The notes under the pieces were generated by a model. The model was not told where the DNA came from. It was given only the letters and a program-made list of their open reading frames with translations, and did not search any database. Below, in pieces: positions 8,315-59,243 of a DNA stretch of 64,000 bases (positions are counted from its first letter, which is position 1; every line of letters starts with the position of its first letter). The stretch spans positions 608,001 through 672,000 of the forward strand of contig CAVRVY010000004.1 of assembly GCA_963724765.1 (NCBI GenBank), read 5' to 3'. Source of the stretch: an uncultured delta proteobacterium. Lineage in GTDB: Bacteria > Desulfobacterota > Binatia > Binatales > Binataceae. A program made the position numbers and the translations under genes.

Positions 8315-8821
8315 CTACCGTAACGCGCGTGCGCTCGGGATTTGGCGGCGCAATTCGGTGCCAAGGCTTTGAATTAGTGTCCGACGGTCGGAATCTTCAA
8401 GCGCCACTTTGCGTTCGCCCTCGGGCCGCATCCATACCGGCGCCGCGCGCATCGCGTCCGTCTCGAAGCGCGGGAAGACGTGCCAATGGACGTGCGGTTC
8501 GAGATTGCCGAGACACTCGTAATTGAGCTTGAGCGGCCGTGTCACCAGCGCGACCGCGCCTCCCACGGCGATCGTCTCGTCGAAAAGCGCGCGCGCCTCC
8601 TCGGGCGGCATCAGATGGATTTCGTCGACGTGGCGTCTGGCGAGCACCACGCAGTAGCCGCGATAGAACTGCGCGTCGCCCAGGATTACGAACGAGTGCG
8701 GCAGCTCCGCGACGAAATCGGCGAAGCTGCCGACGCGGCATCGCTCGATGAGCGCGCAGATTCCGCACGGCCGCGCCGTGGCCCCGCCGTCCACGCTCTC
8801 GCCGCGGTCACCCGGAGGCAT
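8315..8821 (-). CDS. HIT family hydrolase
   Basis: GNLEPHVHWHVFPR histidine triad. Confidence 0.9.
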   Translation of the reverse strand: MPPGDRGESVDGGATARPCGICALIERCRVGSFADFVAELPHSFVILGDAQFYRGYCVVLARRHVDEIHLMPPEEARALFDETIAVGGAVALVTRPLKLNYECLGNLEPHVHWHVFPRFETDAMRAAPVWMRPEGERKVALEDSDRRTLIQSLGTELRRQIPSARALR

Positions 8822-9290
8822 CGGCGCCCTCTGGCGCCACCTGCACCAGCTTTACCGCTGCATGCTTGAGCACTTCGCGCACGGTATGCAGTTTGTACTC
8901 ACGGCCGTAGTAGACGGTGCGGATGCCGGTGTTGATGAGCACCTTGAGGCAGTGGATGCAGGGCGTGTGAGTCACGTAGATGTCGGCGTCGCGAATCGCG
9001 GCGCCGTTCTTGGCCGCCTGCGTGATCGCGTTAATCTCGGCGTGGATGGTGCGCCAGCAGTTCTGCTCGATTTCGCCGTCGGGAGTGCGCGATTCGTAGA
9101 TGAGGCATCCGACCTCGGTGCAATGCGGCATCCCGGCCGGCGATCCGTTGTAGCCGGTGGCCAGGATGCTGCGGTCGCGCACGATCACCGCGCCCACCTT
9201 GGCCCGCAGACAGGTCGAGCGCTCGGCGACCTGTCGAGTGATCGTCATGAAGTACTGATCCCAGCTCGGCCGCTTCCCCCCGCCGCTCAT
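8808..9290 (-). CDS. dCMP deaminase / ComEB-family cytidine deaminase
   Basis: RPSWDQYFM, HAEINAI, PCIHC zinc motifs. Confidence 0.92.
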   Translation of the reverse strand: MSGGGKRPSWDQYFMTITRQVAERSTCLRAKVGAVIVRDRSILATGYNGSPAGMPHCTEVGCLIYESRTPDGEIEQNCWRTIHAEINAITQAAKNGAAIRDADIYVTHTPCIHCLKVLINTGIRTVYYGREYKLHTVREVLKHAAVKLVQVAPEGADASG

Positions 9291-46858: not shown

Positions 46859-47287
46859 CTAAGACCGAATAGTTAGTACCGGGCAAGTGGCGCTACGCAC
46901 CACCGCTTCCGCGACGCTGCCAAGCAACAGATGAGGGAGCCCGGATCGTCCGTGCGTGGCCATTACGATAAGATCGGCGCCAACCTCGTGAGCCGTGGCC
47001 AAGATGTTCTTTGGAATATGCGCGGCGAACGCAAGCTTGGTGTGGAGCTGATTTTTGATTCCGACTAACTCGGCGTCCGCTATCCTCTGAAGGCGCTGAC
47101 GAGCCGACAGGTCACGTTGGGGCTCAAGACTTTGAACGATTTCGGGCGCCGTTGGGATGATGGTGATGACATGCAACAGATGCAGCGTCGCATCCATCTG
47201 TGCCGCAAGCTGCGCCGCATGCTTCACGGCCGCGAGGGAATTCTCGTCAAAGTCGACCGGGCAAAGAACAGTCTGATAGCGGTGCAT
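46859..47287 (-). CDS. Universal stress protein
   Basis: LCPVDFDENS, MATHGRSG..HLLLGSVAEAVVRSATCPVL. Confidence 0.93.
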   Translation of the reverse strand: MHRYQTVLCPVDFDENSLAAVKHAAQLAAQMDATLHLLHVITIIPTAPEIVQSLEPQRDLSARQRLQRIADAELVGIKNQLHTKLAFAAHIPKNILATAHEVGADLIVMATHGRSGLPHLLLGSVAEAVVRSATCPVLTIRS

Positions 47288-47352
47288 TAAGCGTTCGCTT
47301 TCTCGGTTCTGCTGGTTCTGGATGATGATGTTGTGCCATCGGCGCGGCTCGT

Positions 47353-48969
47353 TTACATCGGAGCGACGGACTGCTTCAGCTCTTTTGGTTCGGGTAGCTC
47401 GGTCAGCGTCGCCTCGCTGAGCAAAAGCAGGCTCGCCACCGAAACCGCGTTCTCCAGTGCGACACGCACGACTTTGGTCGGATCGATTATTCCCTTCTCG
47501 ACCAGGTTCACGTATTCCTTGCGCGCCGCATCGAATCCCAGATCGCCCTTGCCGGTCCGCATCTGGTGCACTACCACGCCCCCATCGACCCCGGAGTTTT
47601 CAGCCAACTGACGGGTAGGGATCTCCAGCGCCCGCTTGAGTATCTGGAGCCCGGTACGTTCGTCGCCCTCGCATTTGCTTTCCTCGTTTTCCAGAGCATC
47701 GATCGCGCGCAGCAGAGCGAGCCCGCCGCCCGGGATGATTCCCTCGGCCACGGCGGCTTTGGTCGCGCTGATCGCATCGTCGAAAGCCTCCTTGCGGCTC
47801 TTCATTTCGGCCTCCGACGGCGCACCGACGCGAATAACCGCGACTCCGCCGGAGAGCTTGGCCAGTCGTTCCTGGAGTTTCTCTCTGTCGTAGTCGCTGG
47901 TCGTCTTGTCGATCAGCTGGCGGAGCTGCAGCTTGCGCCCTTCGATGGCGCGCTTGTCGCCAAGACCGCCGATTATCTTGGTCGTATCGTGGTCGACCAC
48001 CACACGCTTTGCCCTCCCAAGTTGCGCGAGGTCCAATGCTTCGAGCCGGGCACCGATCTCTTCCGAAGCGACGCGGCCACCAGTCAGGATGGCGATATCC
48101 TCAAGTATCTCCTTGCGCCGGTCGCCGAAGCCCGGCGCCTTGACGGCTACACAGCGCAACGCGCCGCGAAGCTTGTTCACCAGCAACGTCGCCAGGGCTT
48201 CACCTTCGATATCCTCGGCGATGAGGAGCAGCGCCTGTCCGGCCTGGACAATCTGCTCGAGCACATGGACCAGATCCTTCATCACGGTTATCTTGTGGTC
48301 CGTAAGCAGAATGACTGCATCTTCGAGCACCGCCTCCATTTTGTCGGGGTCGGTCACGAAGTATGGTGACACGTAACCACGGTCGAACTGCAAACCCTCG
48401 ACGACCTCGAGGTTGGTCTCGGTGGTTTTCGATTCCTCCACCGAAATGACACCATCGCCGCCGACCTTCTCCATCGCGTCGGCCACCAGCTCGCCCATCG
48501 CGGGCTCGTTATGCGCCGAAATCGTCGCGATCTGCATCTTCTCCAGCCGGCTCTTGACCGGGCGGGAAAGCGCACGCAGGCTCTCGACAGCAATTCGAAC
48601 ACTACGGTCGAGCCCACGCTTTATGTCGATTGCGCTCGCGCCCGCAGCGACGTTGCGCACTCCATCGGCGAAGATTGCTTCGGCCAGCATGGCGGAGGTG
48701 CTGGTACCGTCGCCCACGCTGTCTCCCGTACGCTCTGCGGCCTGACGAATCATCTGGGCCCCAAGGTTCTCTATCGCATCCTTGAGGTTGATCTCCTTGG
48801 CGATCGTCACGCCGTCGTTGCAAACCAGCGGCGGGCCGAACGAGCGCTGGATAAGCACACACTTCGATTTGGGCCCGAGCGTGATCCGAACCGCGTCGGC
48901 CAGTGCCTTTGCCCCGCGGAGCAGCTTCTCCCGCGCCTCCGAACTGAAAAAGAGCTGGGTGTGTTCCAT
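47353..48969 (-). CDS. groEL: Chaperonin GroEL (divergent paralog, no adjacent groES)
   Basis: TLGPK, NDGVTIAKEI, GDGTST, KAPGFGDRRK, KLQERLAKL; no GGM tail. Confidence 0.95.
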   Translation of the reverse strand: MEHTQLFFSSEAREKLLRGAKALADAVRITLGPKSKCVLIQRSFGPPLVCNDGVTIAKEINLKDAIENLGAQMIRQAAERTGDSVGDGTSTSAMLAEAIFADGVRNVAAGASAIDIKRGLDRSVRIAVESLRALSRPVKSRLEKMQIATISAHNEPAMGELVADAMEKVGGDGVISVEESKTTETNLEVVEGLQFDRGYVSPYFVTDPDKMEAVLEDAVILLTDHKITVMKDLVHVLEQIVQAGQALLLIAEDIEGEALATLLVNKLRGALRCVAVKAPGFGDRRKEILEDIAILTGGRVASEEIGARLEALDLAQLGRAKRVVVDHDTTKIIGGLGDKRAIEGRKLQLRQLIDKTTSDYDREKLQERLAKLSGGVAVIRVGAPSEAEMKSRKEAFDDAISATKAAVAEGIIPGGGLALLRAIDALENEESKCEGDERTGLQILKRALEIPTRQLAENSGVDGGVVVHQMRTGKGDLGFDAARKEYVNLVEKGIIDPTKVVRVALENAVSVASLLLLSEATLTELPEPKELKQSVAPM

Positions 48970-49048
48970 AAGAAGTTAACTCTCGAGAAATTGAGACTTC
49001 GCGATCAAACCAAGGGCCTCAACTGTTCAACAGCGCGCAGGCCGCGTG

Positions 49049-49312
49049 CTAGGGAGTCGCGCTATCCTCGATAAATTCTGCATAACAAGCCTCGCACAGC
49101 GGCGTTATTTCGCCGGCCTCGTCCAAAATGGCGATCACCTCACTCGCAGGCTCCTCACTTGCCTTCGTATGCGCCCGCGCGACCGCGCATGGCCCGCAAC
49201 CGAATGCCCTGCCGGTTTTGCTTTCGTATTTGCGAGCGATCGCGGCCTGTTCGAGATCACTAAGACCATCGAGCAGGACAGCTTTTGCGGCGTATTTTGT
49301 GGACATTCCCAT
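49049..49312 (-). CDS. Small putative zinc-binding protein
   Basis: GGAGG RBS; CGPC and CEAC. Confidence 0.65.
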   Translation of the reverse strand: MGMSTKYAAKAVLLDGLSDLEQAAIARKYESKTGRAFGCGPCAVARAHTKASEEPASEVIAILDEAGEITPLCEACYAEFIEDSATP

Positions 49313-49417
49313 TCCTCCGAGGCCGGCGGCTACGCGGATTATGCCGCTGAAAGTAGTGAGCACTCCAGAGTGACTAAACGCTTTGGAGTGCCCTTCAATG
49401 GTTTGTCGCCGGTCAGC

Positions 49418-49855
49418 TCAATGCGCTGCTTCGAGCGGAATCTTCTTGGCCCCCACCTCCTTGGCGATAGGCATCGTGACCTCGACGACTCCGTTCTTGA
49501 ACGTGGCCTTGATCTTATCGGTCTGGGCTCCCTCGGGCAGAGTCGTGTGGCGCTCGAACGCGCCGTACGAAACCTCACGTCGGAAGTAGTTTTCCTTTTT
49601 CACTTCCTGTTTGTCTTTGCGCTCGCCCTTGATCATCAGGACGTTTCCAAGCACACTCACGTCGATATCCTTAGGATCGAGCCCCGGCACGTCCGCGCGA
49701 ACGACCACGTTCCCGTCCTTGACGTAGCTCTCGATGGGCAGCTTAAGTTCGCCCTCTTCCTCGAAGTCCTCGAAGAACCGTGGGAACCGAGTCTCGAAGC
49801 GCCGCGCCCAGCGCTCGAGGTCCGAAAACGGCCGCCATGGTTGTAGTTCTCGCAT
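49418..49855 (-). CDS. Hsp20/alpha-crystallin small heat-shock protein
   Basis: ADVPG, L.IKGER, REVSYGAFER, ATFKNGV. Confidence 0.95.
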   Translation of the reverse strand: MRELQPWRPFSDLERWARRFETRFPRFFEDFEEEGELKLPIESYVKDGNVVVRADVPGLDPKDIDVSVLGNVLMIKGERKDKQEVKKENYFRREVSYGAFERHTTLPEGAQTDKIKATFKNGVVEVTMPIAKEVGAKKIPLEAAH

Positions 49856-49908
49856 CGTCGTCTCTCCATTTCTCTTTTTTTTTGAGTAGGGCCTGCGCCC
49901 AACTGCGG

Positions 49909-50089
49909 AGCAATCATCGGGCCAATGAATCAACCGCATAGCCATCACATCTACTAGTTAAAAGTCGCACACTCCGGGGCGCGTGCTTCCGATCGACGCA
50001 CAGCCGAACAAGCCGGCTGTGTCCGATCGCACCACGGGAAATTCTGATTTCGGCCGATTGCAAGGCAATTGTATGGCGCGTCTCTTGCG
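49909..50089. promoter_or_regulatory. Divergent sigma54 promoters sharing central palindromic sites
   Basis: TGGCCCGATGATTGCT (minus, 49909-49924); TGGCGCGTCTCTTGCG (plus, 50074-50089); TGCTTCCGATCGACGCA at 49984 and TGTGTCCGATCGCACCA at 50018. Confidence 0.75.
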
Positions 50090-50150
50090 TCATAGTGGCG
50101 CGTCAAAGCCTTTGCAGGCGGCTCGGATCGATTCCTGAGAGGGCGACTCG

Positions 50151-50375
50151 ATGGCAAACCAGAACCCGATAACGTGTTCGCACTGCGGAAGCAGGAACAT
50201 GCATCTCGGCGAACGCGCAGAGGGCGGCATAAACGCCTACTGCGCCCGTTGCGGTATGCTTGCAAAGGAGTGCGCGCCTACTTTCTGCGGGCGCTGCGGC
50301 AAAAAAGTCGCCGAAGAGTTACTCGATCGTCACTATTTTTGCGCGCAGTGCCACGATCTTCCGTCCGCCGCCTAG
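50151..50375 (+). CDS. Small protein with four CxxC motifs
   Basis: CSHC, CARC, CGRC, CAQC in 74 aa; GAGGG RBS. Confidence 0.7.
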   Translation: MANQNPITCSHCGSRNMHLGERAEGGINAYCARCGMLAKECAPTFCGRCGKKVAEELLDRHYFCAQCHDLPSAA

Positions 50376-50494
50376 GCGGTGCGCTTTTTCTTAATCCGTG
50401 GGTTTGAAGAATGCACCGTCGGGGTCATCGCCGCTTCTGATGATTACGTTTCGTCTTCCTAGGCAGCCTGGTTCTTCGACGCCTCTAAGGCATA

Positions 50495-50965
50495 TCAAGC
50501 AGAGCCGGTCCGACGATGCGGCCGACAAATCCCCGCCAGCGTGCGCCCAACCTCGGCGTCGCAAACCTCGGGCTGCCATCCGCCGCGCGTGCGCTGAGCT
50601 TCGCGCGCGATGTCGTTGATGGAAATGATACCGACGAGGACGCCCTGATCATTTACGACTGGCAGACGCCTGACCTGGTTGTCATGCATCAATGCCTCTG
50701 CCGTCCTCAGGTCATCGCTCGCCCTACACGAGACAACATTGTGTGCCATCACGCTGGCAACGGCGATTTCAAAAAGCGGCCTTCGCTGTGTATATGCCGC
50801 CATACAAATATCGCGATCGGTCAACATCCCGACCGCGTGGCCGTCATCGCCGGCCACCGGCACGCATCCGCAATTGTTCTCCCACATAATCTGTGCGGCG
50901 GCGCTGAGTGCATCGTCATGCCCACAGACCTTGACGTCGGGGGTCATAACTCTTCGGACTTCCAT
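50495..50965 (-). CDS. CBS domain protein (paralog of 29352-29825)
   Basis: AAQIMWENNCGCVPV, LTDRDICMAAYTQ, VRRLPV. Confidence 0.9.
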   Translation of the reverse strand: MEVRRVMTPDVKVCGHDDALSAAAQIMWENNCGCVPVAGDDGHAVGMLTDRDICMAAYTQRRPLFEIAVASVMAHNVVSCRASDDLRTAEALMHDNQVRRLPVVNDQGVLVGIISINDIAREAQRTRGGWQPEVCDAEVGRTLAGICRPHRRTGSA

Positions 50966-51069
50966 GATTTTCCTCTTGCGACCCATGGGCAACATGGTGA
51001 ATCCTGCCGGATCTCACCGAAGAAAAGGTGCGAGCCCGGGGGCTCCCGTCCCGCGTGCGGCTATTTCGC

Positions 51070-51684
51070 CTATGGATGGACCGTGAGCACAGTAAAATTC
51101 TTGTCGGTCAGCATCCGAGCCACTCGATCTGCGTCAGCCGCGCGCAAACGCAGGTAAACCACCCTGCCTCTGCCTTCCGTTTGCTCGCCCCGATAGGTGC
51201 CCATTCCGAGAATCTCCCCATTCTCCTGGGCTACCAGCTGAGCGATTGTCGCAAGCTCAGAGGAGTCTCCCTCGAGCGACAGGTCGATTCTCGCAACGCC
51301 TTCTTCCGTGGTGCCGAGCACTTCGGCGAAGGCCCGCAGCAAGTCTGTCGCAGTGATGATTCCGACCAGCTTGTCGCGGTCGACGACAGGCAGCGCGCCG
51401 ATCTTGTGTTTGACCAGCAGGTTGGCCGCCTCCTCAAGCACGGTTGTGGGAGTCACGCTCACCACCGAGGTAGTCATTGCGCCATTGACCTTGACTCGCG
51501 ACAGAGCGCCCGTGTGTTGGCGCAGGTCGCGGTCACTCACGATGCCGACAAGTTTGCCGCCGTCGACCACGGGCACGCGATGAAAGTTTCGCTTGTCCAT
51601 CATCTGCCGGACCGTCGCGAGCGTGTCTTTTGATTCTACGACGACAGGATCTTTAGTCATCCAACGAGCTACGTTCATTAGCAT
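51070..51684 (-). CDS. AcuB-like CBS pair plus ACT domain protein
   Basis: VARWMTKDP, IVSDRDL, KIGALPV, C-terminal ACT-like domain. Confidence 0.88.
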   Translation of the reverse strand: MLMNVARWMTKDPVVVESKDTLATVRQMMDKRNFHRVPVVDGGKLVGIVSDRDLRQHTGALSRVKVNGAMTTSVVSVTPTTVLEEAANLLVKHKIGALPVVDRDKLVGIITATDLLRAFAEVLGTTEEGVARIDLSLEGDSSELATIAQLVAQENGEILGMGTYRGEQTEGRGRVVYLRLRAADADRVARMLTDKNFTVLTVHP

Positions 51685-51744: not shown

Positions 51745-52914
51745 TCAGCGGTTGCCGCCCATTTCCTGTGACCACACAAGATCCGAATGGTTACTTAGGG
51801 GAATCATTTTTTGCGCGGCATTGTGTATGCTGAGCCCGTAGCGGTCGATCCTCGCATAGAGCTTCTTGCGAGATATTTTCAGAAGGCGCGCCGCTTGCAC
51901 CTTGTTTCCCCCAGTGCGCTCGAGCGCTTTGGTGATAACCTTGCGTTCGAATTCGGCATAGCTGCCGGAGCTCTCGATGGTCGTGGGCTCGTCATTGGGG
52001 TCTTCTTCGCTCGCCACTATTGTCGAGGAGATTGCGTGCGGCGCGGCTCGCCAGGCGTTCACGATCCTGGAGGGCAGATCATCCAGCGTAATGGTGGCGG
52101 AGGTACCGAATGTAAAGGCCGATTCGATCGTGTTGGCAAGCTCGCGGACGTTGCCGGGCCAATCGTACACTTGCAACGCCGCCATCGCTTCGGCGGCGAC
52201 GCCTACCAGAAACTTCCCGCCCTCGTTGCGCTCGTTGAGCAGCTTCAGGAAATGCTGAGCAAGCGTCGCAATATCGTCTGAACGCCCGCGCAGCGGCGCG
52301 ATTTCCAACACGTTCACTTGCAAACGATAATAGAGGTCGGCGCGCAACTGGCCCGTGCGGGCGGCCTCGGCCGGATCGCGATTGGTCGACGCAATGAGTC
52401 TGATGTCGACGGGGGTCTCGTGTGTCGAGCCGACAGGCCTCACGGCTCGTTCCTGGATCGCACGCAGCAGCTTCGCCTGCAGGTCCGGGCTCATCTCAGT
52501 AATCTCGTCCAGGAAGACCGTGCCGCCGTGTGCGGCGCGCAGGAGTCCCGGATGATCGGCGTTTGCGCCGCTGAAAGCTCCGCGCCGATGGCCGAACAGT
52601 TCGCTTTCGATTAGGTCTCTCGGAATCGCGGCGCAGTTAAAGGGAACGAATGATCCTCGCTGCGCGCCGCATTCATGGACGGCGCGCGCCACCAGCTCCT
52701 TACCGGTTCCGCTCTCGCCAACGATAAGGACGGTCGAGCGGGTGGCGGCGACCGCTTCAATCCGGCGAAACAGCCGCCGCATCGCAGCATTCGACCCGAG
52801 CAGACCGTGAAATGGCGTTGCTGCTTCCGCCTCGATGCCCGCGAAGCCCGCGGAAAGGTTCCCGTCAAACTGAGGTTGTCGGTCTTCTTCAGCCGAAGTT
52901 GCATTGATAGGCAT
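51745..52914 (-). CDS. sigma54 enhancer-binding protein (AAA+ and Fis HTH) without a sensor domain; start uncertain
   Basis: GESGTGKE, ESELFGH..GAFSGA, FLDEI, DLYYRL, WPGNVREL, GNKVQAARLLKISRKKLY. Confidence 0.92.
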   Translation of the reverse strand: MPINATSAEEDRQPQFDGNLSAGFAGIEAEAATPFHGLLGSNAAMRRLFRRIEAVAATRSTVLIVGESGTGKELVARAVHECGAQRGSFVPFNCAAIPRDLIESELFGHRRGAFSGANADHPGLLRAAHGGTVFLDEITEMSPDLQAKLLRAIQERAVRPVGSTHETPVDIRLIASTNRDPAEAARTGQLRADLYYRLQVNVLEIAPLRGRSDDIATLAQHFLKLLNERNEGGKFLVGVAAEAMAALQVYDWPGNVRELANTIESAFTFGTSATITLDDLPSRIVNAWRAAPHAISSTIVASEEDPNDEPTTIESSGSYAEFERKVITKALERTGGNKVQAARLLKISRKKLYARIDRYGLSIHNAAQKMIPLSNHSDLVWSQEMGGNR

Positions 52915-52926
52915 GTGCCGCAAGGG

Positions 52927-52961
52927 AGCATACGACGTGCCATGTGTTTCCTTTCGATGCA
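52927..52961 (-). promoter_or_regulatory. sigma54 promoter of the activator gene with an abutting palindrome
   Basis: TGGCACGTCGTATGCT (minus, 52927-52942); TGTTTCCTTTCGATGCA at 52945-52961. Confidence 0.72.
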
Positions 52962-53092
52962 AGCTCAGGATTTCCATCCGAGCATCGGAAACATGCGACA
53001 TCGATGCCTCACCTTGGGGAATGGAGTCCGCACCATCGCCTCGGGCTCGAACCCCTCAAGCGCCGCTTCGCCGCGCCGCAATGCGTCGCGCC

Positions 53093-53425
53093 TCACTCAG
53101 AGACCAGGATGCGGGGCTCGAGCCGAACGAATGCTGAAAGCGATGCGGAGAGGAAGCAGGCCTTGGCGCTCTTCTCCAGCACGCGCGCGGCCGCGCCGGG
53201 ATCGGAGCCAGCCGGCAAGCTAAGCACCGGTCTCAGCACGACCTCCGTGATGCGAACTACGCCCTCTTTACGTTCGAGCATTCCCTCGCCCAGGATGTCG
53301 ATCGACGTGTATCGACCTTGGAAGTAGCCGCCACCGCGCGCAGCGTGAACAGAAAGCAGCTTTCGACTGCTGCCACCAGGAGCTGTTCAGGGCTCCAGGC
53401 ATCTCCGGGGCCAGGGAGCGGCCTC
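53093..53425 (-). pseudogene. OsmC/Ohr family protein, 5'-truncated and frameshifted
   Basis: WSPEQLLVAAVESCF in one frame; RITEVVLRP...AKACFLSASL in another. Confidence 0.8.
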
Positions 53426-53431
53426 AAGGGA

Positions 53432-53447
53432 TGGCTTATGTTTTGCT
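53432..53447 (+). promoter_or_regulatory. sigma54 promoter of polX
   Basis: TGGCTTATGTTTTGCT about 47 nt before the start. Confidence 0.65.
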
Positions 53448-53493
53448 CACGCGAAAGTAGTGCGTAACCCTTTGGTGTAGGACCGGCCGTCGA

Positions 53494-55206
53494 GTGACCG
53501 CGATGATGCAAAACGAGGAAGTGGCAAAAGTTCTCGACGAGATCGGCGACATGCTCGAGGTCGAAGGGGAGAACTTTTTTCGGGTGCGCGCGTATCGGAA
53601 TGCCGCCCGCTCGGTGCGCGACCAGCCCGTTGCAGTTGCCGAGCTCTCTCCTCAACAGCTCGACGAAATTCCCGGAATCGGAGCGGACCTGGCCGGCAAG
53701 ATAAGTACGTTGATCAAGACCGGCGAACTGCCGCTGCATCGAGAGCTTGCTGAGAAATTTCCGCCTGCGCTCCTTGAATTGAGAGACATTTCCGGCCTCG
53801 GCCCCAAACGGCTCAAGCTGTTGATCGACCGCCTAGATATTCACGGCAAAGATGACCTCGAACGCGAAGCCAAGGCCGGGACGTTGCGCAAGCTCCGGGG
53901 CTTCGGGGCCAAAATGGAGGAAAGGATTCTCGAATCGCTGGCCCGTCGGGAACACGCAGCGGACAAACGGATTTCGTATGCGGAGGCGACGCGGATCGCC
54001 GACCGTCTCGTCGCGCATCTGCGCAAATGCCGCGCGGTCGAGCAACTTGAGGTCGCGGGCAGCTTTCGTCGCAGGCGCGAGACAGTGGGCGATCTCGATT
54101 TGCTGGCGGCTGCCGCGCGTCCCGACCCTGTCATGAAGCAGTTCGCAAGTTTCCCGGACGTGACAAAAGTTACCGGCTCCGGCGAGACCAAGGCCAGCAT
54201 GGTACTCAGGGGCGGCCTGCAAGTTGACCTTCGCGTAGTGCCGCAAGATAGTTTCGGCGCCGCGCTCATGTACTTCACCGGCTCGAAGTCCCACAACGTT
54301 CACCTTCGCCGCATCGCGCAGGCGCGCGGGCTTCTGCTCAACGAGTACGGGCTCTTTCGGGGCCGCTCGACGATCGCGGGAAAGACCGAGGAGCAGGTCT
54401 ATAAGACGCTCGGCCTTCCGTGGATGCCGCCGGAACTTCGCGAGGACCGCGGAGAGATCGAAGCGGCGCAATCAGGCCGCTTACCCAGCCTTCTAAGCCG
54501 AAGCGATCTTCGCGGAGATCTCCACACGCATTCGACTTACACGGACGGGCGAAGCTCGATTGAAGAGATGGCGCGCAAGGCAGGCGAGATGGGGCTTGAG
54601 TATTTCGCCGTCACCGACCATTCGCGGCGCATCGCGATGGCGCATGGGCTGGACCCCAAGCGGCTGCGCGAGCAGGGACGCGAGATCGAACGGATCGGAG
54701 GAAGCCTGCGCGGTATAAAACTGCTTCGCGGCATCGAGGTAGATATTCTCGACGATGGAAGCCTCGACCTGCCGGATCACGTGTTGGCCGAGCTCGATTG
54801 GGTGGTCGCCTCCGTCCACTATAAGCTGGAACAGAATCCGCGCGAGATGACGCGGCGGTTGATCAAGGCGATTCGCAATCCAAACGTCGACGTGATCGGC
54901 CATCCGAGCGGCCGTCTAATCGGACATCGGGAACCAAGTGAATTCGACCTGGGAGAGGTATTGCGCGTGGCGCGCGAGGAGAGGTGCGCGCTCGAGGTAA
55001 ATTCGCAACCCGAGCGGCTCGATCTCACCGACACCGCGTGCATCGCCGCCAAGCATGCCGGCGTGAAGCTCGTGGTATCGAGTGACGCGCATTCGCCGCG
55101 AGATTTCGAGCTGCTGGAGTACGGCGTGAACCAGGCGCGGCGCGGATGGATCGAGGCTGACGACGTCCTGAACACGCGAACTCTCAAGTCACTGCGGCAG
55201 CGCTAG
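53494..55206 (+). CDS. polX: DNA polymerase X / PHP 3'-5' exonuclease
   Basis: GSFRR..ETVGDLD, QVDLR, YFTGSKSHN; PHP motifs DLHTHS, TDHS, SDAH. Confidence 0.96.
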   Translation: MTAMMQNEEVAKVLDEIGDMLEVEGENFFRVRAYRNAARSVRDQPVAVAELSPQQLDEIPGIGADLAGKISTLIKTGELPLHRELAEKFPPALLELRDISGLGPKRLKLLIDRLDIHGKDDLEREAKAGTLRKLRGFGAKMEERILESLARREHAADKRISYAEATRIADRLVAHLRKCRAVEQLEVAGSFRRRRETVGDLDLLAAAARPDPVMKQFASFPDVTKVTGSGETKASMVLRGGLQVDLRVVPQDSFGAALMYFTGSKSHNVHLRRIAQARGLLLNEYGLFRGRSTIAGKTEEQVYKTLGLPWMPPELREDRGEIEAAQSGRLPSLLSRSDLRGDLHTHSTYTDGRSSIEEMARKAGEMGLEYFAVTDHSRRIAMAHGLDPKRLREQGREIERIGGSLRGIKLLRGIEVDILDDGSLDLPDHVLAELDWVVASVHYKLEQNPREMTRRLIKAIRNPNVDVIGHPSGRLIGHREPSEFDLGEVLRVAREERCALEVNSQPERLDLTDTACIAAKHAGVKLVVSSDAHSPRDFELLEYGVNQARRGWIEADDVLNTRTLKSLRQR

Positions 55207-55757: not shown

Positions 55758-57098
55758 CTACGCGTGAAGGCGCCATTCCGCGGCGCGCCTGGCGGCAAGA
55801 ATCCGCTTGACCTCGTCGTCACCGACCTGGTGGAAATCCCGGTAGAATTGCCCTACGGCAAAGAAGTCCTCCGGGGTCTCAAGGCAAACGATCTCGTCGG
55901 TATCGCCGCGCAGCGCTTCTAGAGTTTCCGCAGGCGCGACCGGAATCGCCAGTATGAGCTTCTTCGGTTTCGCCCGGCGAACTCCCCGAAGCGCGGCTCG
56001 CACCGATGATCCTGTAGCGATTCCGTCGTCGACGACGATCACCGTTTTGCCCGCGAGCGCAACTGACGGCTCCCCGCCGCGATACGCAATCTCACGGCGT
56101 TTTATCTCTTTGAGCTGTCGCTCGATTTCGCGCGTGATATATTCGTCCTCGACGCCCAGCGATTCGATCACTCCCTGGTTGAAAATCGCGCGTGGATGAT
56201 CGCCGTCGACAACTGCGCCAATTCCGAGTTCTGGTTGGCCGGGCGCGCCGAGCTTTCGCACCACCACGATATCGAGGGGCGCTTGCAGAGCATCCGCGAC
56301 CTCGCGCGCCACGGGCAGCCCGCCCCGCGGAATGCCGAGCACGACCACATCCTTGCCCTTATAGGAGGAAAGCGCGGCTGCCAGCATCCGCCCCGCTTCA
56401 ACGCGGCTTGAAAACACAATCGGATCTCCGGCTGAGACGTGGGCTAGTGGCGCGCCTTTCATGTGGAGGACAAACCAATCGCTTGCGAGTTCTGCCACTT
56501 GCTCCAGCGTCCCTGATTCCTCGAACAAGTGGGTGGCGCCGGGCACGATCTTGAACGATTTGTGGCAGCGCAGCAGATTGTACGCCCTCTCGTTGAGCTC
56601 GATCACACCATAGTCCCGGCCACCCACGATAAGCAGGGTCGGCGCTCTGACCTCGGCGAGATGCCGAAGGGCAAGGTCGGGACGGCCTCCGCGCGAAACG
56701 ACAGCGCAGACCATAGGATCCTGGGCTGCCGCCGCCAGCGCAGCTGCGGCACCGGTGCTGGCACCGAAATATCCTACTGCATAGCCTCTCGCGTCCCGCC
56801 TTGCTCTCAGCCACCTCGTCGCGTCGCCAAGCCGATGCGCGAGGAAATCGATGTCGAAAACGTTCTCACGGTCAGCCGCCTCCTCGTCCGTGAGAAGATC
56901 CAGTAGCAGCGTGCCGATTCCGGCATTCTGAAGCGTCTGCGCGACGAGTTGGTTACGAGGGCTCAGGCGGCTGCTGCCACTGCCATGGGCGAACAAGACC
57001 ACCCCCATGGCGCCCTCAGGAATCGCCAGTTCACCCTCCAGGCGCACTGAATCCGAAGGTATGAGCTCCTGACTTCGGGCTATATGTTGCTTGGTCAT
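55758..57098 (-). CDS. Dienelactone-hydrolase-like / phosphoribosyltransferase fusion
   Basis: FAHGSGSSR, GYFGASTG, VSRGGRPDL; GIPRGG, VVDDGIATG, AVGQFY. Confidence 0.92.
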   Translation of the reverse strand: MTKQHIARSQELIPSDSVRLEGELAIPEGAMGVVLFAHGSGSSRLSPRNQLVAQTLQNAGIGTLLLDLLTDEEAADRENVFDIDFLAHRLGDATRWLRARRDARGYAVGYFGASTGAAAALAAAAQDPMVCAVVSRGGRPDLALRHLAEVRAPTLLIVGGRDYGVIELNERAYNLLRCHKSFKIVPGATHLFEESGTLEQVAELASDWFVLHMKGAPLAHVSAGDPIVFSSRVEAGRMLAAALSSYKGKDVVVLGIPRGGLPVAREVADALQAPLDIVVVRKLGAPGQPELGIGAVVDGDHPRAIFNQGVIESLGVEDEYITREIERQLKEIKRREIAYRGGEPSVALAGKTVIVVDDGIATGSSVRAALRGVRRAKPKKLILAIPVAPAETLEALRGDTDEIVCLETPEDFFAVGQFYRDFHQVGDDEVKRILAARRAAEWRLHA

Positions 57099-57121: not shown

Positions 57122-57223
57122 AGCATCAGACGTGCCACCGGAGGCGACGTTCGATTCGGCCGTTCCGAACCATTCGCAGATCCGCCCTGCCGAAAGGAGA
57201 CACCGCTGGTGCCATAGGAGTCA
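57122..57223 (-). promoter_or_regulatory. sigma54 promoter with upstream palindromic sites
   Basis: TGGCACGTCTGATGCT (minus, 57122-57137); TGGTGCCATAGGAGTCA at 57207 and a half-site at 57186. Confidence 0.75.
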
Positions 57224-58878: not shown

Positions 58879-59243
58879 AGCAATCTTTAGGCCAGTTCCC
58901 TGTGGAGCGAGCATTACAATAGATTTGTCGTGCGCAGAGCGGGGCCTGACGCATGAATGCTCGGGTGCGGCGCGGGCGAATTGCACCATCCAAACCTTCC
59001 TCTGTATCCAAAGGGAACAACCCGCACAGCGTGCGGTGGTGTTTTATTGTTTTCGTGCGCGCTCACGCATCGAAGCGGCAAGGGTGCTGAAGCCGAGAGC
59101 TCAAAGTCTTCAACCGAGTTATCGTTCATGGACTAGCGGATTGTGGCTCTCCAGGTAGCACGCCGGCATTTCAGCGGCGCCGGCCTTTGGCCTTCCGTGG
59201 GTCTCTTCTATCGAAAGATCCTGCCCATGGCACAGGGAATGCT
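58879..59243. promoter_or_regulatory. Divergent sigma54 promoters with a central palindrome
   Basis: TGGCCTAAAGATTGCT (minus, 58879-58894); TGGCACAGGGAATGCT (plus, 59228-59243); TGTATCCAAAGGGAACA at 59003-59019. Confidence 0.75.

Follow-up and report, generated by a model that had tools for sequence, protein, structure and literature searches.

A sensor-less sigma-54 activator of the Binataceae with a conserved sigma-54 promoter of its own and a predicted leaderless transcript

The stretch of DNA analyzed here, hereafter the window, comprises 64,000 nt from an uncultured member of the Binataceae (assembly GCA_963724765.1, contig CAVRVY010000004.1, positions 608,001-672,000 of the forward strand), whose genome, G000, consists of four contigs and 5.4 Mb. 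Positions are those of the window unless a contig or locus is named. On its minus strand, the window carries the gene of a bacterial enhancer-binding protein (bEBP), an activator of sigma-54-dependent transcription reduced to an AAA+ core and a helix-turn-helix (HTH), which is followed by two genes of CBS-domain proteins and preceded by a sigma-54-type promoter that abuts the start codon and, farther upstream, by a pair of dyads (Table 1). Seven loci were compared throughout: the window, a paralogue of 78% identity located on contig C1 of the same genome, and the orthologous loci of genomes G046, G093, G063, G085 and G121.

Within the ORF (open reading frame) track of 418 amino acids that covers the activator (51745-53001, minus strand), Pfam recognizes Sigma54_activat (PF00158; residues 68-231, E 1.7e-63, 213.7 bits against a cut-off of 20.2), AAA_lid_14 (residues 238-317, 79 bits) and HTH_8 (residues 349-388, 51.2 bits against a cut-off of 22), and reports neither REC, GAF, PAS nor any further family at E<=0.01. 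The absence of any Response_reg match sets the protein apart from the NtrC type with its fused N-terminal receiver. A protein search confined to relatives of 229-732 amino acids returned 33 clusters with 57-93% identity to the activator, all of them 332-427 amino acids long; from the 34th match on, the length jumps to about 500-550 amino acids and identity is at most 63%. Twenty-eight of the short clusters were taken into an orthologue alignment, in which the Walker motifs GESGTGKE and VFLDE are invariant and no member carries an extra Pfam domain or a sensor. Sixteen of these orthologues start at a methionine aligned with M30 of the ORF (MPINATS, position 52914), ten were called shorter or truncated and two longer, and all seven loci keep an in-frame ATG at this place. 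The true protein is therefore 389 amino acids long, with its AAA+ core beginning 38 residues in. An AlphaFold2 model built from 29 sequences gives its first 36 residues a predicted local distance difference test score (pLDDT) below 50 and zero secondary structure, and on this model the tail holds no cryptic domain. A first-pass annotation of the window, made from its sequence, had noticed the lack of REC, GAF and PAS domains and the early onset of the core, and had moved the start to about 52914; both points hold across the orthologues, whose short N-terminus is conserved and none of which has a receiver, the nearest longer relatives being globin-like instead.

The closest orthologues are P0001 (93% identity, from another metagenome cluster) and P0002 (83%), and a scan of metagenome loci found no close orthologue, its best match, L091, reaching 69% and the others at most 60%. 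Among solved structures the core is nearest to ZraR (1ojl, 1.4e-75), and no NCBIfam equivalog cut-off is reached. We conclude that the activator is a real, conserved, sensor-less bEBP, whose clade was seen only in one genus of Binataceae; the family tally also took in the unpublished genomes G044, G059, G087, G017 and G042, on which no claim made here depends. The host genome encodes an intact rpoN (PF04552, 203.8 bits at C3:568723-569199, in an open frame of 527 amino acids) and gives 28 strong matches to the sigma-54 AAA+ domain. The sigma-54 contact loop reads GAFSGA in 24 of the 28 orthologues, GAFTGA in three and GSYSGA in one, and GAFSGA is invariant in the 50 longer relatives inspected. 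The replacement of GAFTGA by GAFSGA, singled out in the first-pass annotation, is thus present but is a signature of the clade rather than an anomaly; passages of PMC4641369 and PMC6615313 describe GAFSGA as a variant that keeps activity, the former naming DVU2827 and DVU3305 of Desulfovibrio vulgaris among its carriers.

The promoter within the non-coding extension of the ORF track had likewise been proposed as near-consensus. By itself, the pattern of TGGCACGTCGTATGCT is not above chance, because the window contains four matches to TGGCAC-N5-TTGCW, against 2.0 expected, and 13 of 100 shuffles reach four. The looser TGGC-N7-WTGCW has seven matches against 2.28 expected (0 of 100 shuffles), six of which fall within 49.9-59.3 kb. 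What decides is conservation. The motif TGGCA[CT]-N6-TGCT occurs in all seven loci with a variable spacer, TGGCA and TGCT being invariant in the six aligned loci and the seventh (L117, G121) presenting TGGCACGTACTGTGCT at the identical offset, and in each of the seven the T of TGGCA lies exactly 28 nt 5' of the in-frame ATG. At the level of sequence, this conservation is decisive evidence for a sigma-54 promoter of the activator gene. No sigma-70-like site was found upstream of the gene on the same strand, and other sequencing runs yielded short, low-depth DNA contigs over 52700-53800 that, at the promoter and enhancer, are identical or nearly identical to the window.

The constant distance from T to ATG, taken together with the usual -24/-12 geometry, predicts a leaderless mRNA that would probably start about 2 nt before the ATG, so that the proposal of an almost leaderless gene stands as a prediction of a 0-4-nt leader shared by the seven loci. 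A limited literature search that included parts of PMC3616915 met no described case of a leaderless mRNA from a sigma-54 promoter, which does not prove that none exists. In a survey of leader lengths over 57 promoter candidates of the genome, noisy owing to ORF-track extensions, only two further ATG starts had short leaders: at the strong candidates C1:199652 (plus strand) and C3:459094 (minus strand), the ATG of a long ORF follows the T of TGGCA by 31 nt. Very short leaders may be commoner among the sigma-54 genes of this organism.

Alignment of the regions farther upstream revealed two tandem 18-bp dyads, TGnGGA-N6-TCCCCA and TGrGGC-N6-GCCCCA, 53-90 nt upstream of TGGCA, with centers at about -88 and -108 and a separation of 20 bp (21 in the window). 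Their half-sites are conserved while their spacers vary among loci. The tandem pair occurs at -90/-70 in six of the seven loci, compared with 44 of 5000 shuffled regions, and the first dyad, TGCGGACTCCATTCCCCA in the window, is kept at -89 to -91 from the T of TGGCA in six of the seven. The window also has a degenerate second dyad, TGAGGCATCGATGTCGCA, and an additional dyad-like site, TGAGGGGTTCGAGCCCGA, of its own. Allowing one mismatch, TGGGG-N8-CCCCA occurs 76 times in the genome; of these sites, just three are 260 nt or less away from a sigma-54-like promoter, in each case that of one or the other paralogue. In G063 and G085, the activator and a receiver gene have divergent sigma-54 promoters, and the dyads sit in the space that separates these. 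To judge from sequence, the dyads are probable binding sites for the HTH of the activator itself, and, given the conservation of promoter, spacing and dyads in an arrangement classical for autoregulated bEBPs, the activator very probably governs its own gene by way of the sigma-54 promoter; autoregulation had been proposed in the first-pass annotation. The location of conserved dyads at a classical enhancer distance predicts a positive rather than a negative feedback, and their association with sigma-54 promoters, confined to the activator and its paralogue, lends support to the same sign.

Two observations concern the surroundings of these dyads. Dyad 1 lies just 28-45 nt before the start codon of a divergent PAS kinase gene at four loci (L032, around 8802-8850, L033, L034 and L117). 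PspF represses or controls its own promoter, and by analogy, occupation of dyad 1 may have a repressing or other regulatory effect on the promoter of the kinase as well. On contig C1 (L032, 10171-10248), 5.3 tandem copies of the 15-nt unit CCATGTTTCTGATAC stand directly upstream of the sigma-54 promoter of the receiver gene; this unit and the right edge of enhancer dyad 2 have CCATGTT in common.

A different upstream element had been put forward in the first-pass annotation, namely a regulon palindrome 2 bp from the -24 element, thought to act as a self-limiting operator. An imperfect inverted repeat is physically there, with a perfect 7-nt pair of arms (52945-52951/52987-52993) and a 9-nt pair matching at 89% (52952-52960/52982-52990); nevertheless, the same search found no equivalent in any of the six related loci, and the repeat does not resemble the conserved dyads. 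Its core word, GCATCGAAAG, was tried as a regulon word and rejected, since its 8 matches in the window show no excess over the 7.71 expected, and no dyad is common to the upstream regions of the five other sigma-54 promoters of the window, save one site shared by two divergent promoters of a single intergenic region. The repeat is thus not established as a regulon element. Since it is specific to the window locus, a conserved self-limiting operator is unsupported, and the conserved dyads stand at enhancer distance. Overlapping the right arm of the repeat, 8 nt upstream of TGGCAC, is a short block, ATCGAAAG, found exactly in three of the seven loci and with one mismatch in a fourth. Two other sigma-54 promoters of the window have a similar word 10 nt upstream, and it occurs at 4 of the 57 promoter candidates of the genome, against 0.65 expected (P=0.004, post hoc). 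Its interpretation as an IHF-like site was judged by eye only and is unsupported.

Table 1. Features of the activator locus, in window coordinates
Feature	Position	Strand	Basis or remark
Sensor-less sigma-54 activator, coding sequence	51745..52914	-	389 amino acids; Pfam, orthologue alignment, AlphaFold2 model
Activator protein parts	residues 1-36 disordered tail; ~39-290 AAA+ core and lid; 319-369 Fis-type HTH		
GAFSGA sigma-54 contact loop codons	52564..52581	-	sequence
ORF-track extension of 29 codons, non-coding, holding the promoter	52915..53001	-	orthologues start at the Met aligned with M30
Predicted transcription start (~52916)	52915..52917	-	standard -24/-12 geometry; 0-4 nt before the ATG at 52914
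Sigma-54 promoter TGGCACGTCGTATGCT	52927..52942	-	-24 GG, -12 GC; one mismatch to TGGCAC-N5-TTGCW
Imperfect inverted repeat ("regulon palindrome" of the first-pass annotation)	52945..52993	.	starts 2 bp from TGGCAC; locus-specific
ATCGAAAG block	52951..52958	-	8 nt upstream of TGGCAC; overlaps the right arm of the repeat
Putative enhancer dyad 2 TGAGGCATCGATGTCGCA	52994..53011	.	degenerate here: 3 mismatches against 0-1 in the other six loci
Putative enhancer dyad 1 TGCGGACTCCATTCCCCA (minus-strand reading)	53015..53032	.	one mismatch to TGGGG-N8-CCCCA
Extra dyad-like site TGAGGGGTTCGAGCCCGA	53041..53058	.	2 mismatches; window locus only
AcuB-like CBS-CBS-ACT protein, 204 amino acids	51070..51684	-	Pfam CBS twice; AcuB chain matches
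CBS-pair protein, ORF of 166 amino acids	50495..50995	-	Pfam; Rv2626c-type chain 1xkf, 3.3e-15

Directly downstream of the activator and on the same strand lie, as had been reported, the CBS-ACT and CBS genes. The CBS-ACT protein matches solved AcuB chains (5awe, 5.4e-26; 9s4w, 9.9e-21) over residues 5-187 of its 204, its CBS pair scoring 116.9 bits; Pfam does not report an ACT family at E<=0.01. It is separated from the activator by 60 nt that contain no terminator-like or promoter-like site, and no terminator-like site was found between the activator and either CBS gene; CBS-ACT is probably co-transcribed with the activator, and the CBS-pair gene is probably the last of the operon. In the window, G046 and G121, the CBS-ACT gene comes directly after the activator; at the C1 paralogue locus, a sigma-54 promoter of its own precedes it. 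An acetyl-CoA hydrolase/transferase gene and Hsp20 follow CBS-ACT in G121 and at C1. At E<=1e-40, it was not found in the activator-bearing genomes G085 and G093, which are 94-95% complete, and it is present in G026, which has no activator.

In all six other loci, the activator has as its neighbor a stand-alone receiver of 122-128 amino acids, whose gene invariably carries a sigma-54 promoter of its own. Four of these loci also contain an adjacent orthologous PAS kinase (72-77% identity), and a fifth has a hybrid kinase there. Among 17 genomes of the genus, which are kin, so that counts overstate independence, the activator is present in six, and the receiver in the same six and in G105, where it lies beside a longer relative of the activator; only 1 of the 11 genomes without activator has it. 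The kinase is most like AtoS and the receiver most like the receivers of NtrX and NtrC, all below family cut-offs. G000 has a single kinase/receiver module, which is on contig C1 beside the paralogue, the window locus having lost it. In the tree, the window copy groups with that of G121, a locus of full layout, with support of 94/85, and its terminal branch measures 0.069 against a median of 0.13. Because the receiver occurs in all six activator genomes and CBS-ACT is missing from two, we rank the receiver as the better-supported, if unproven, candidate for a trans regulator. Hence, of the control in trans by CBS-ACT suggested in the first-pass annotation, the trans regulator stays plausible while its identity does not fare as well. 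A predicted complex of activator residues 1-300 with the receiver scored 0.00 and 0.00, which is no evidence either way.

The longer relatives, of about 500-550 amino acids, are 61% identical to the activator from FHGL to the C-terminus in the case of P0040, homology starting at residue 35 of the activator and residue 192 of P0040. Their HTH is nearly identical, with the helix ISRKKLY common to both forms. Their N-terminal 150 or so residues, which no Pfam model recognizes and for which an ESM Atlas look-up gave no usable match, yield a confident all-helical model with invariant His, Trp and Tyr. This model resembles sensor globins (4uiq, Z 14.9 over 140 aligned residues; the N-domain of RsbR, 2bnl, Z 14.6; DosC, 4zva, Z 14.1; 1or4, Z 13.2), and such values are near the caution level for helical folds, though the matches are consistent and cover the whole domain. 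The window activator has no such domain, its 34-residue tail being unrelated, and the short clade is, to judge from the modeled fold, a globin-less derivative or sister of globin-type activators; the midpoint-rooted tree, with its bootstrap unsettled and 11 forks open, does not resolve the monophyly of the short forms with respect to the long ones. The two long-form genes of G000 have no sigma-54-like promoter by the pattern used, and that of G105 has one, preceded by TGGGGA...TCCCCA dyads. Literature joining globin-coupled sensors with sigma-54 terms was absent from the top 10 matches listed. The Binataceae harbor a large family of such sigma-54 activators of about 510 amino acids (P0034-P0120; C4:1718937 and C1:243091 in G000; L118 in G105).

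Taken together, we consider it likely, if by no means certain, that the locus encodes a minimal bEBP engaged in a sigma-54-dependent, self-activating loop with the CBS operon, and that this loop is gated by the amount of the activator or by a partner. As the only recognizable promoter is sigma-54-dependent, transcription would begin 0-4 nt before the ATG; the HTH of the activator would bind the tandem dyads 53-90 nt upstream of that promoter, and the activator would form a positive autoregulatory loop with the co-transcribed CBS-ACT and CBS genes. An activator without sensor must have its activity set by its amount or by a partner, and the best-supported candidate for that partner is the stand-alone receiver, usually accompanied by the PAS histidine kinase. 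Gating by receiver and kinase is a reading that we hold only tentatively.

Several points weigh against this picture. The start site and the leaderless status are deduced from promoter geometry. In the window, dyad 2 has three mismatches and the dyads are spaced by 21 nt rather than 20, and in four loci the pair precedes the divergent kinase gene by 28-45 nt, so that it could serve that gene instead of, or besides, the activator. At the five other sigma-54-like promoters of the window, TGGGG-N8-CCCCA has only matches with three mismatches, so that the dyads delimit no regulon outside the operon of the activator. Finally, the window locus is the sole one without kinase and receiver, and a receiver that is an output of the regulon rather than its regulator fits the data equally well.

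The absence of kinase and receiver from the window locus is in turn a point in favor of control by amount only, with no dedicated partner, the loop acting as a latch ignited from outside by read-through from the OsmC-like gene upstream or by sensor-bearing relatives that act on the same dyads. The upstream gene is co-directional in the window and divergent at the other loci, the globin-type long forms have almost the same HTH as the activator, the long-form gene of G105 has the dyads before its sigma-54 promoter, and G000 has two long forms. We nonetheless find this rather unlikely, since the receiver is kept with the activator in all six genomes and so seems to matter, and in G000 the pattern used detects no sigma-54-like promoter at either long-form gene. 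The model of the first-pass annotation, in which a constitutively active protein is self-limited through the palindrome and inhibited in trans by CBS-ACT, CBS or both acting as adenylate sensors, has several points in its favor: CBS-ACT is co-transcribed in three loci and sigma-54-driven in a fourth, which would place it in the same regulon, as PspA is for PspF; CBS pairs serve as cis sensor modules in one family of sigma-54 activators, the N-terminal part of NCBIfam PrdR (NF041552) matching both CBS proteins; an inverted repeat abuts the -24 element in the window; and CBS-ACT resembles AcuB, described in a part of PMC13121692 as an adenine-nucleotide sensor that inhibits a partner enzyme. However, CBS-ACT is missing from two activator genomes and present in one without the activator, the repeat is found in 0/6 related loci and bears no likeness to the conserved dyads, and the acetyl-CoA hydrolase/transferase gene that follows CBS-ACT in two loci suggests a metabolic partner; we regard this model as quite improbable.

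Two further explanations start from the duplication in G000. The window protein might work only as a hetero-oligomer with its C1 paralogue, in the manner of HrpR/HrpS, and thereby inherit the kinase/receiver control of that copy. Both paralogues, 78% identical, reside in one genome, agree in their HTH helix and resemble each other in their N-terminal tails; that genome has one kinase/receiver module, and interacting paralogous bEBPs are reported in PMC10084136 and PMC9542535. Yet the other five genomes are single-copy, so the family works as a homo-oligomer, and the two genes of G000 are not adjacent, which makes this very improbable. Alternatively, the window copy could be a decaying duplicate that has lost the kinase/receiver module and part of its enhancer: the divergent kinase and the receiver are gone, dyad 2 is degenerate and the OsmC-like neighbor is split over two frames. 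We find decay barely credible, as the frame of the window copy is intact, all invariant residues of the family and the promoter are kept, its branch is shorter than the median, a 93% identical protein (P0001) exists in another metagenome cluster, and contigs of other runs show an identical or nearly identical sequence over its promoter and enhancer.

The self-activating loop that we favor finds partial counterparts in known systems. Like the activator, PspF comprises an AAA+ core and an HTH without any sensor domain, and in the Psp system the trans regulator itself belongs to the sigma-54 regulon. PspA negatively regulates PspF, as stated in a passage of PMC4641369. The activator is not PspF by family score (240 bits on TIGR02974, cut-off 443.55; 208.3 on NF008622, cut-off 529), and no PspA family was detected among the 30 ORFs of the window and loci that were scanned with Pfam, a 182-amino-acid coiled-coil protein included. 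Moreover, the pspF promoter is of the sigma-70 type, whereas the activator gene has a sigma-54 promoter, and its candidate partners are the receiver and the AcuB-like protein. HrpR and HrpS, of the system that includes HrpV, are sensor-less bEBPs under trans control with two paralogues per genome. G000 likewise has two sensor-less paralogues, but these are on separate contigs rather than in tandem, and five of the six genomes are single-copy. Compared with the NtrC/AtoC type (AtoS-AtoC, ZraS-ZraR), the AAA+ core and HTH of the activator are closest to ZraR among solved structures, but the receiver is a separate protein with a sigma-54 promoter of its own and, at most, a candidate regulator. 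In Desulfovibrio vulgaris, 4 of 37 enhancer-binding proteins have no N-terminal domain (DVU2894, DVU2956 and DVU2989 being named) and control by a partner or a cascade was proposed, according to a section of PMC4641369. These proteins are likewise sensor-less, and a leaderless sigma-54 promoter or an association with a receiver is not described for them in that section.

The sensor-less architecture and the GAFSGA loop are therefore already known and ordinary; what is new is the placement of the promoter, the association with a receiver and the globin ancestry. Should the receiver work in trans on the AAA+ core, the NtrC design would here exist in split form, a tractable system in which to ask how AAA+ rings come under receiver control. 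The clade descends from, or is sister to, a family of globin-domain sigma-54 activators that had so far gone unremarked and that would couple sigma-54 to the sensing of gas or redox state in the Binataceae, an uncultured lineage of soil and peat. One may go further and imagine a three-part switch: a leaderless, self-activating latch would be set by globin-coupled paralogues that sense O2, nitric oxide or redox state and use the common HTH and dyads, would be reset or tuned by the sigma-54-induced receiver once phosphorylated by the PAS kinase, and would drive dormancy-like stress genes (Hsp20, universal stress protein (USP), Rv2626c-like CBS protein and AcuB-like sensor). This elaborate scheme is unlikely to hold as a whole; if it did, the outcome would be a response regulator of the NtrC type with a receiver that works in trans and itself belongs to the regulon.

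The neighborhood of the operon offers additional observations. The OsmC-like gene directly upstream of the activator (53093-53281 and 53257-53739, minus strand) is split over two frames near 53281. Contigs X2 and X4, from two other runs, span this break without indel, and their agreement indicates that the split is not a one-off assembly error. The sigma-54-like promoters of the window cluster before genes of stress type, at 49909-49924, 57122-57137 and 58879-58894 on the minus strand and at 59228-59243 and 53432-53447 on the plus strand. Behind them are Hsp20 with a 104-amino-acid ORF, a GroEL paralogue and USP; a dienelactone-hydrolase/phosphoribosyltransferase fusion with a coiled-coil protein; two small c-type cytochromes; a hemerythrin-like protein; and possibly PolX. 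The promoter of Hsp20 is identical in G121 (L117, 11455). No TGGGG-N8-CCCCA dyads were found at this cluster. Between the divergent promoters of the cytochrome c and hemerythrin genes lies the palindrome CCGCAC-AGC-GTGCGG (about 59022-59036), a candidate enhancer for another activator. The genes at 46859-51684 and 55758-57098 recall the mycobacterial DosR dormancy regulon in that they include USP, an alpha-crystallin-type Hsp20, the Rv2626c-like CBS pair (1xkf, 3.3e-15) and the hydrolase-phosphoribosyltransferase fusion, which is presumably like Rv0571c. Together with the globin-type relatives and the FixL/AtoS-like PAS kinase, this gene set gives a hint of sigma-54 control over a response to hypoxia or redox state.

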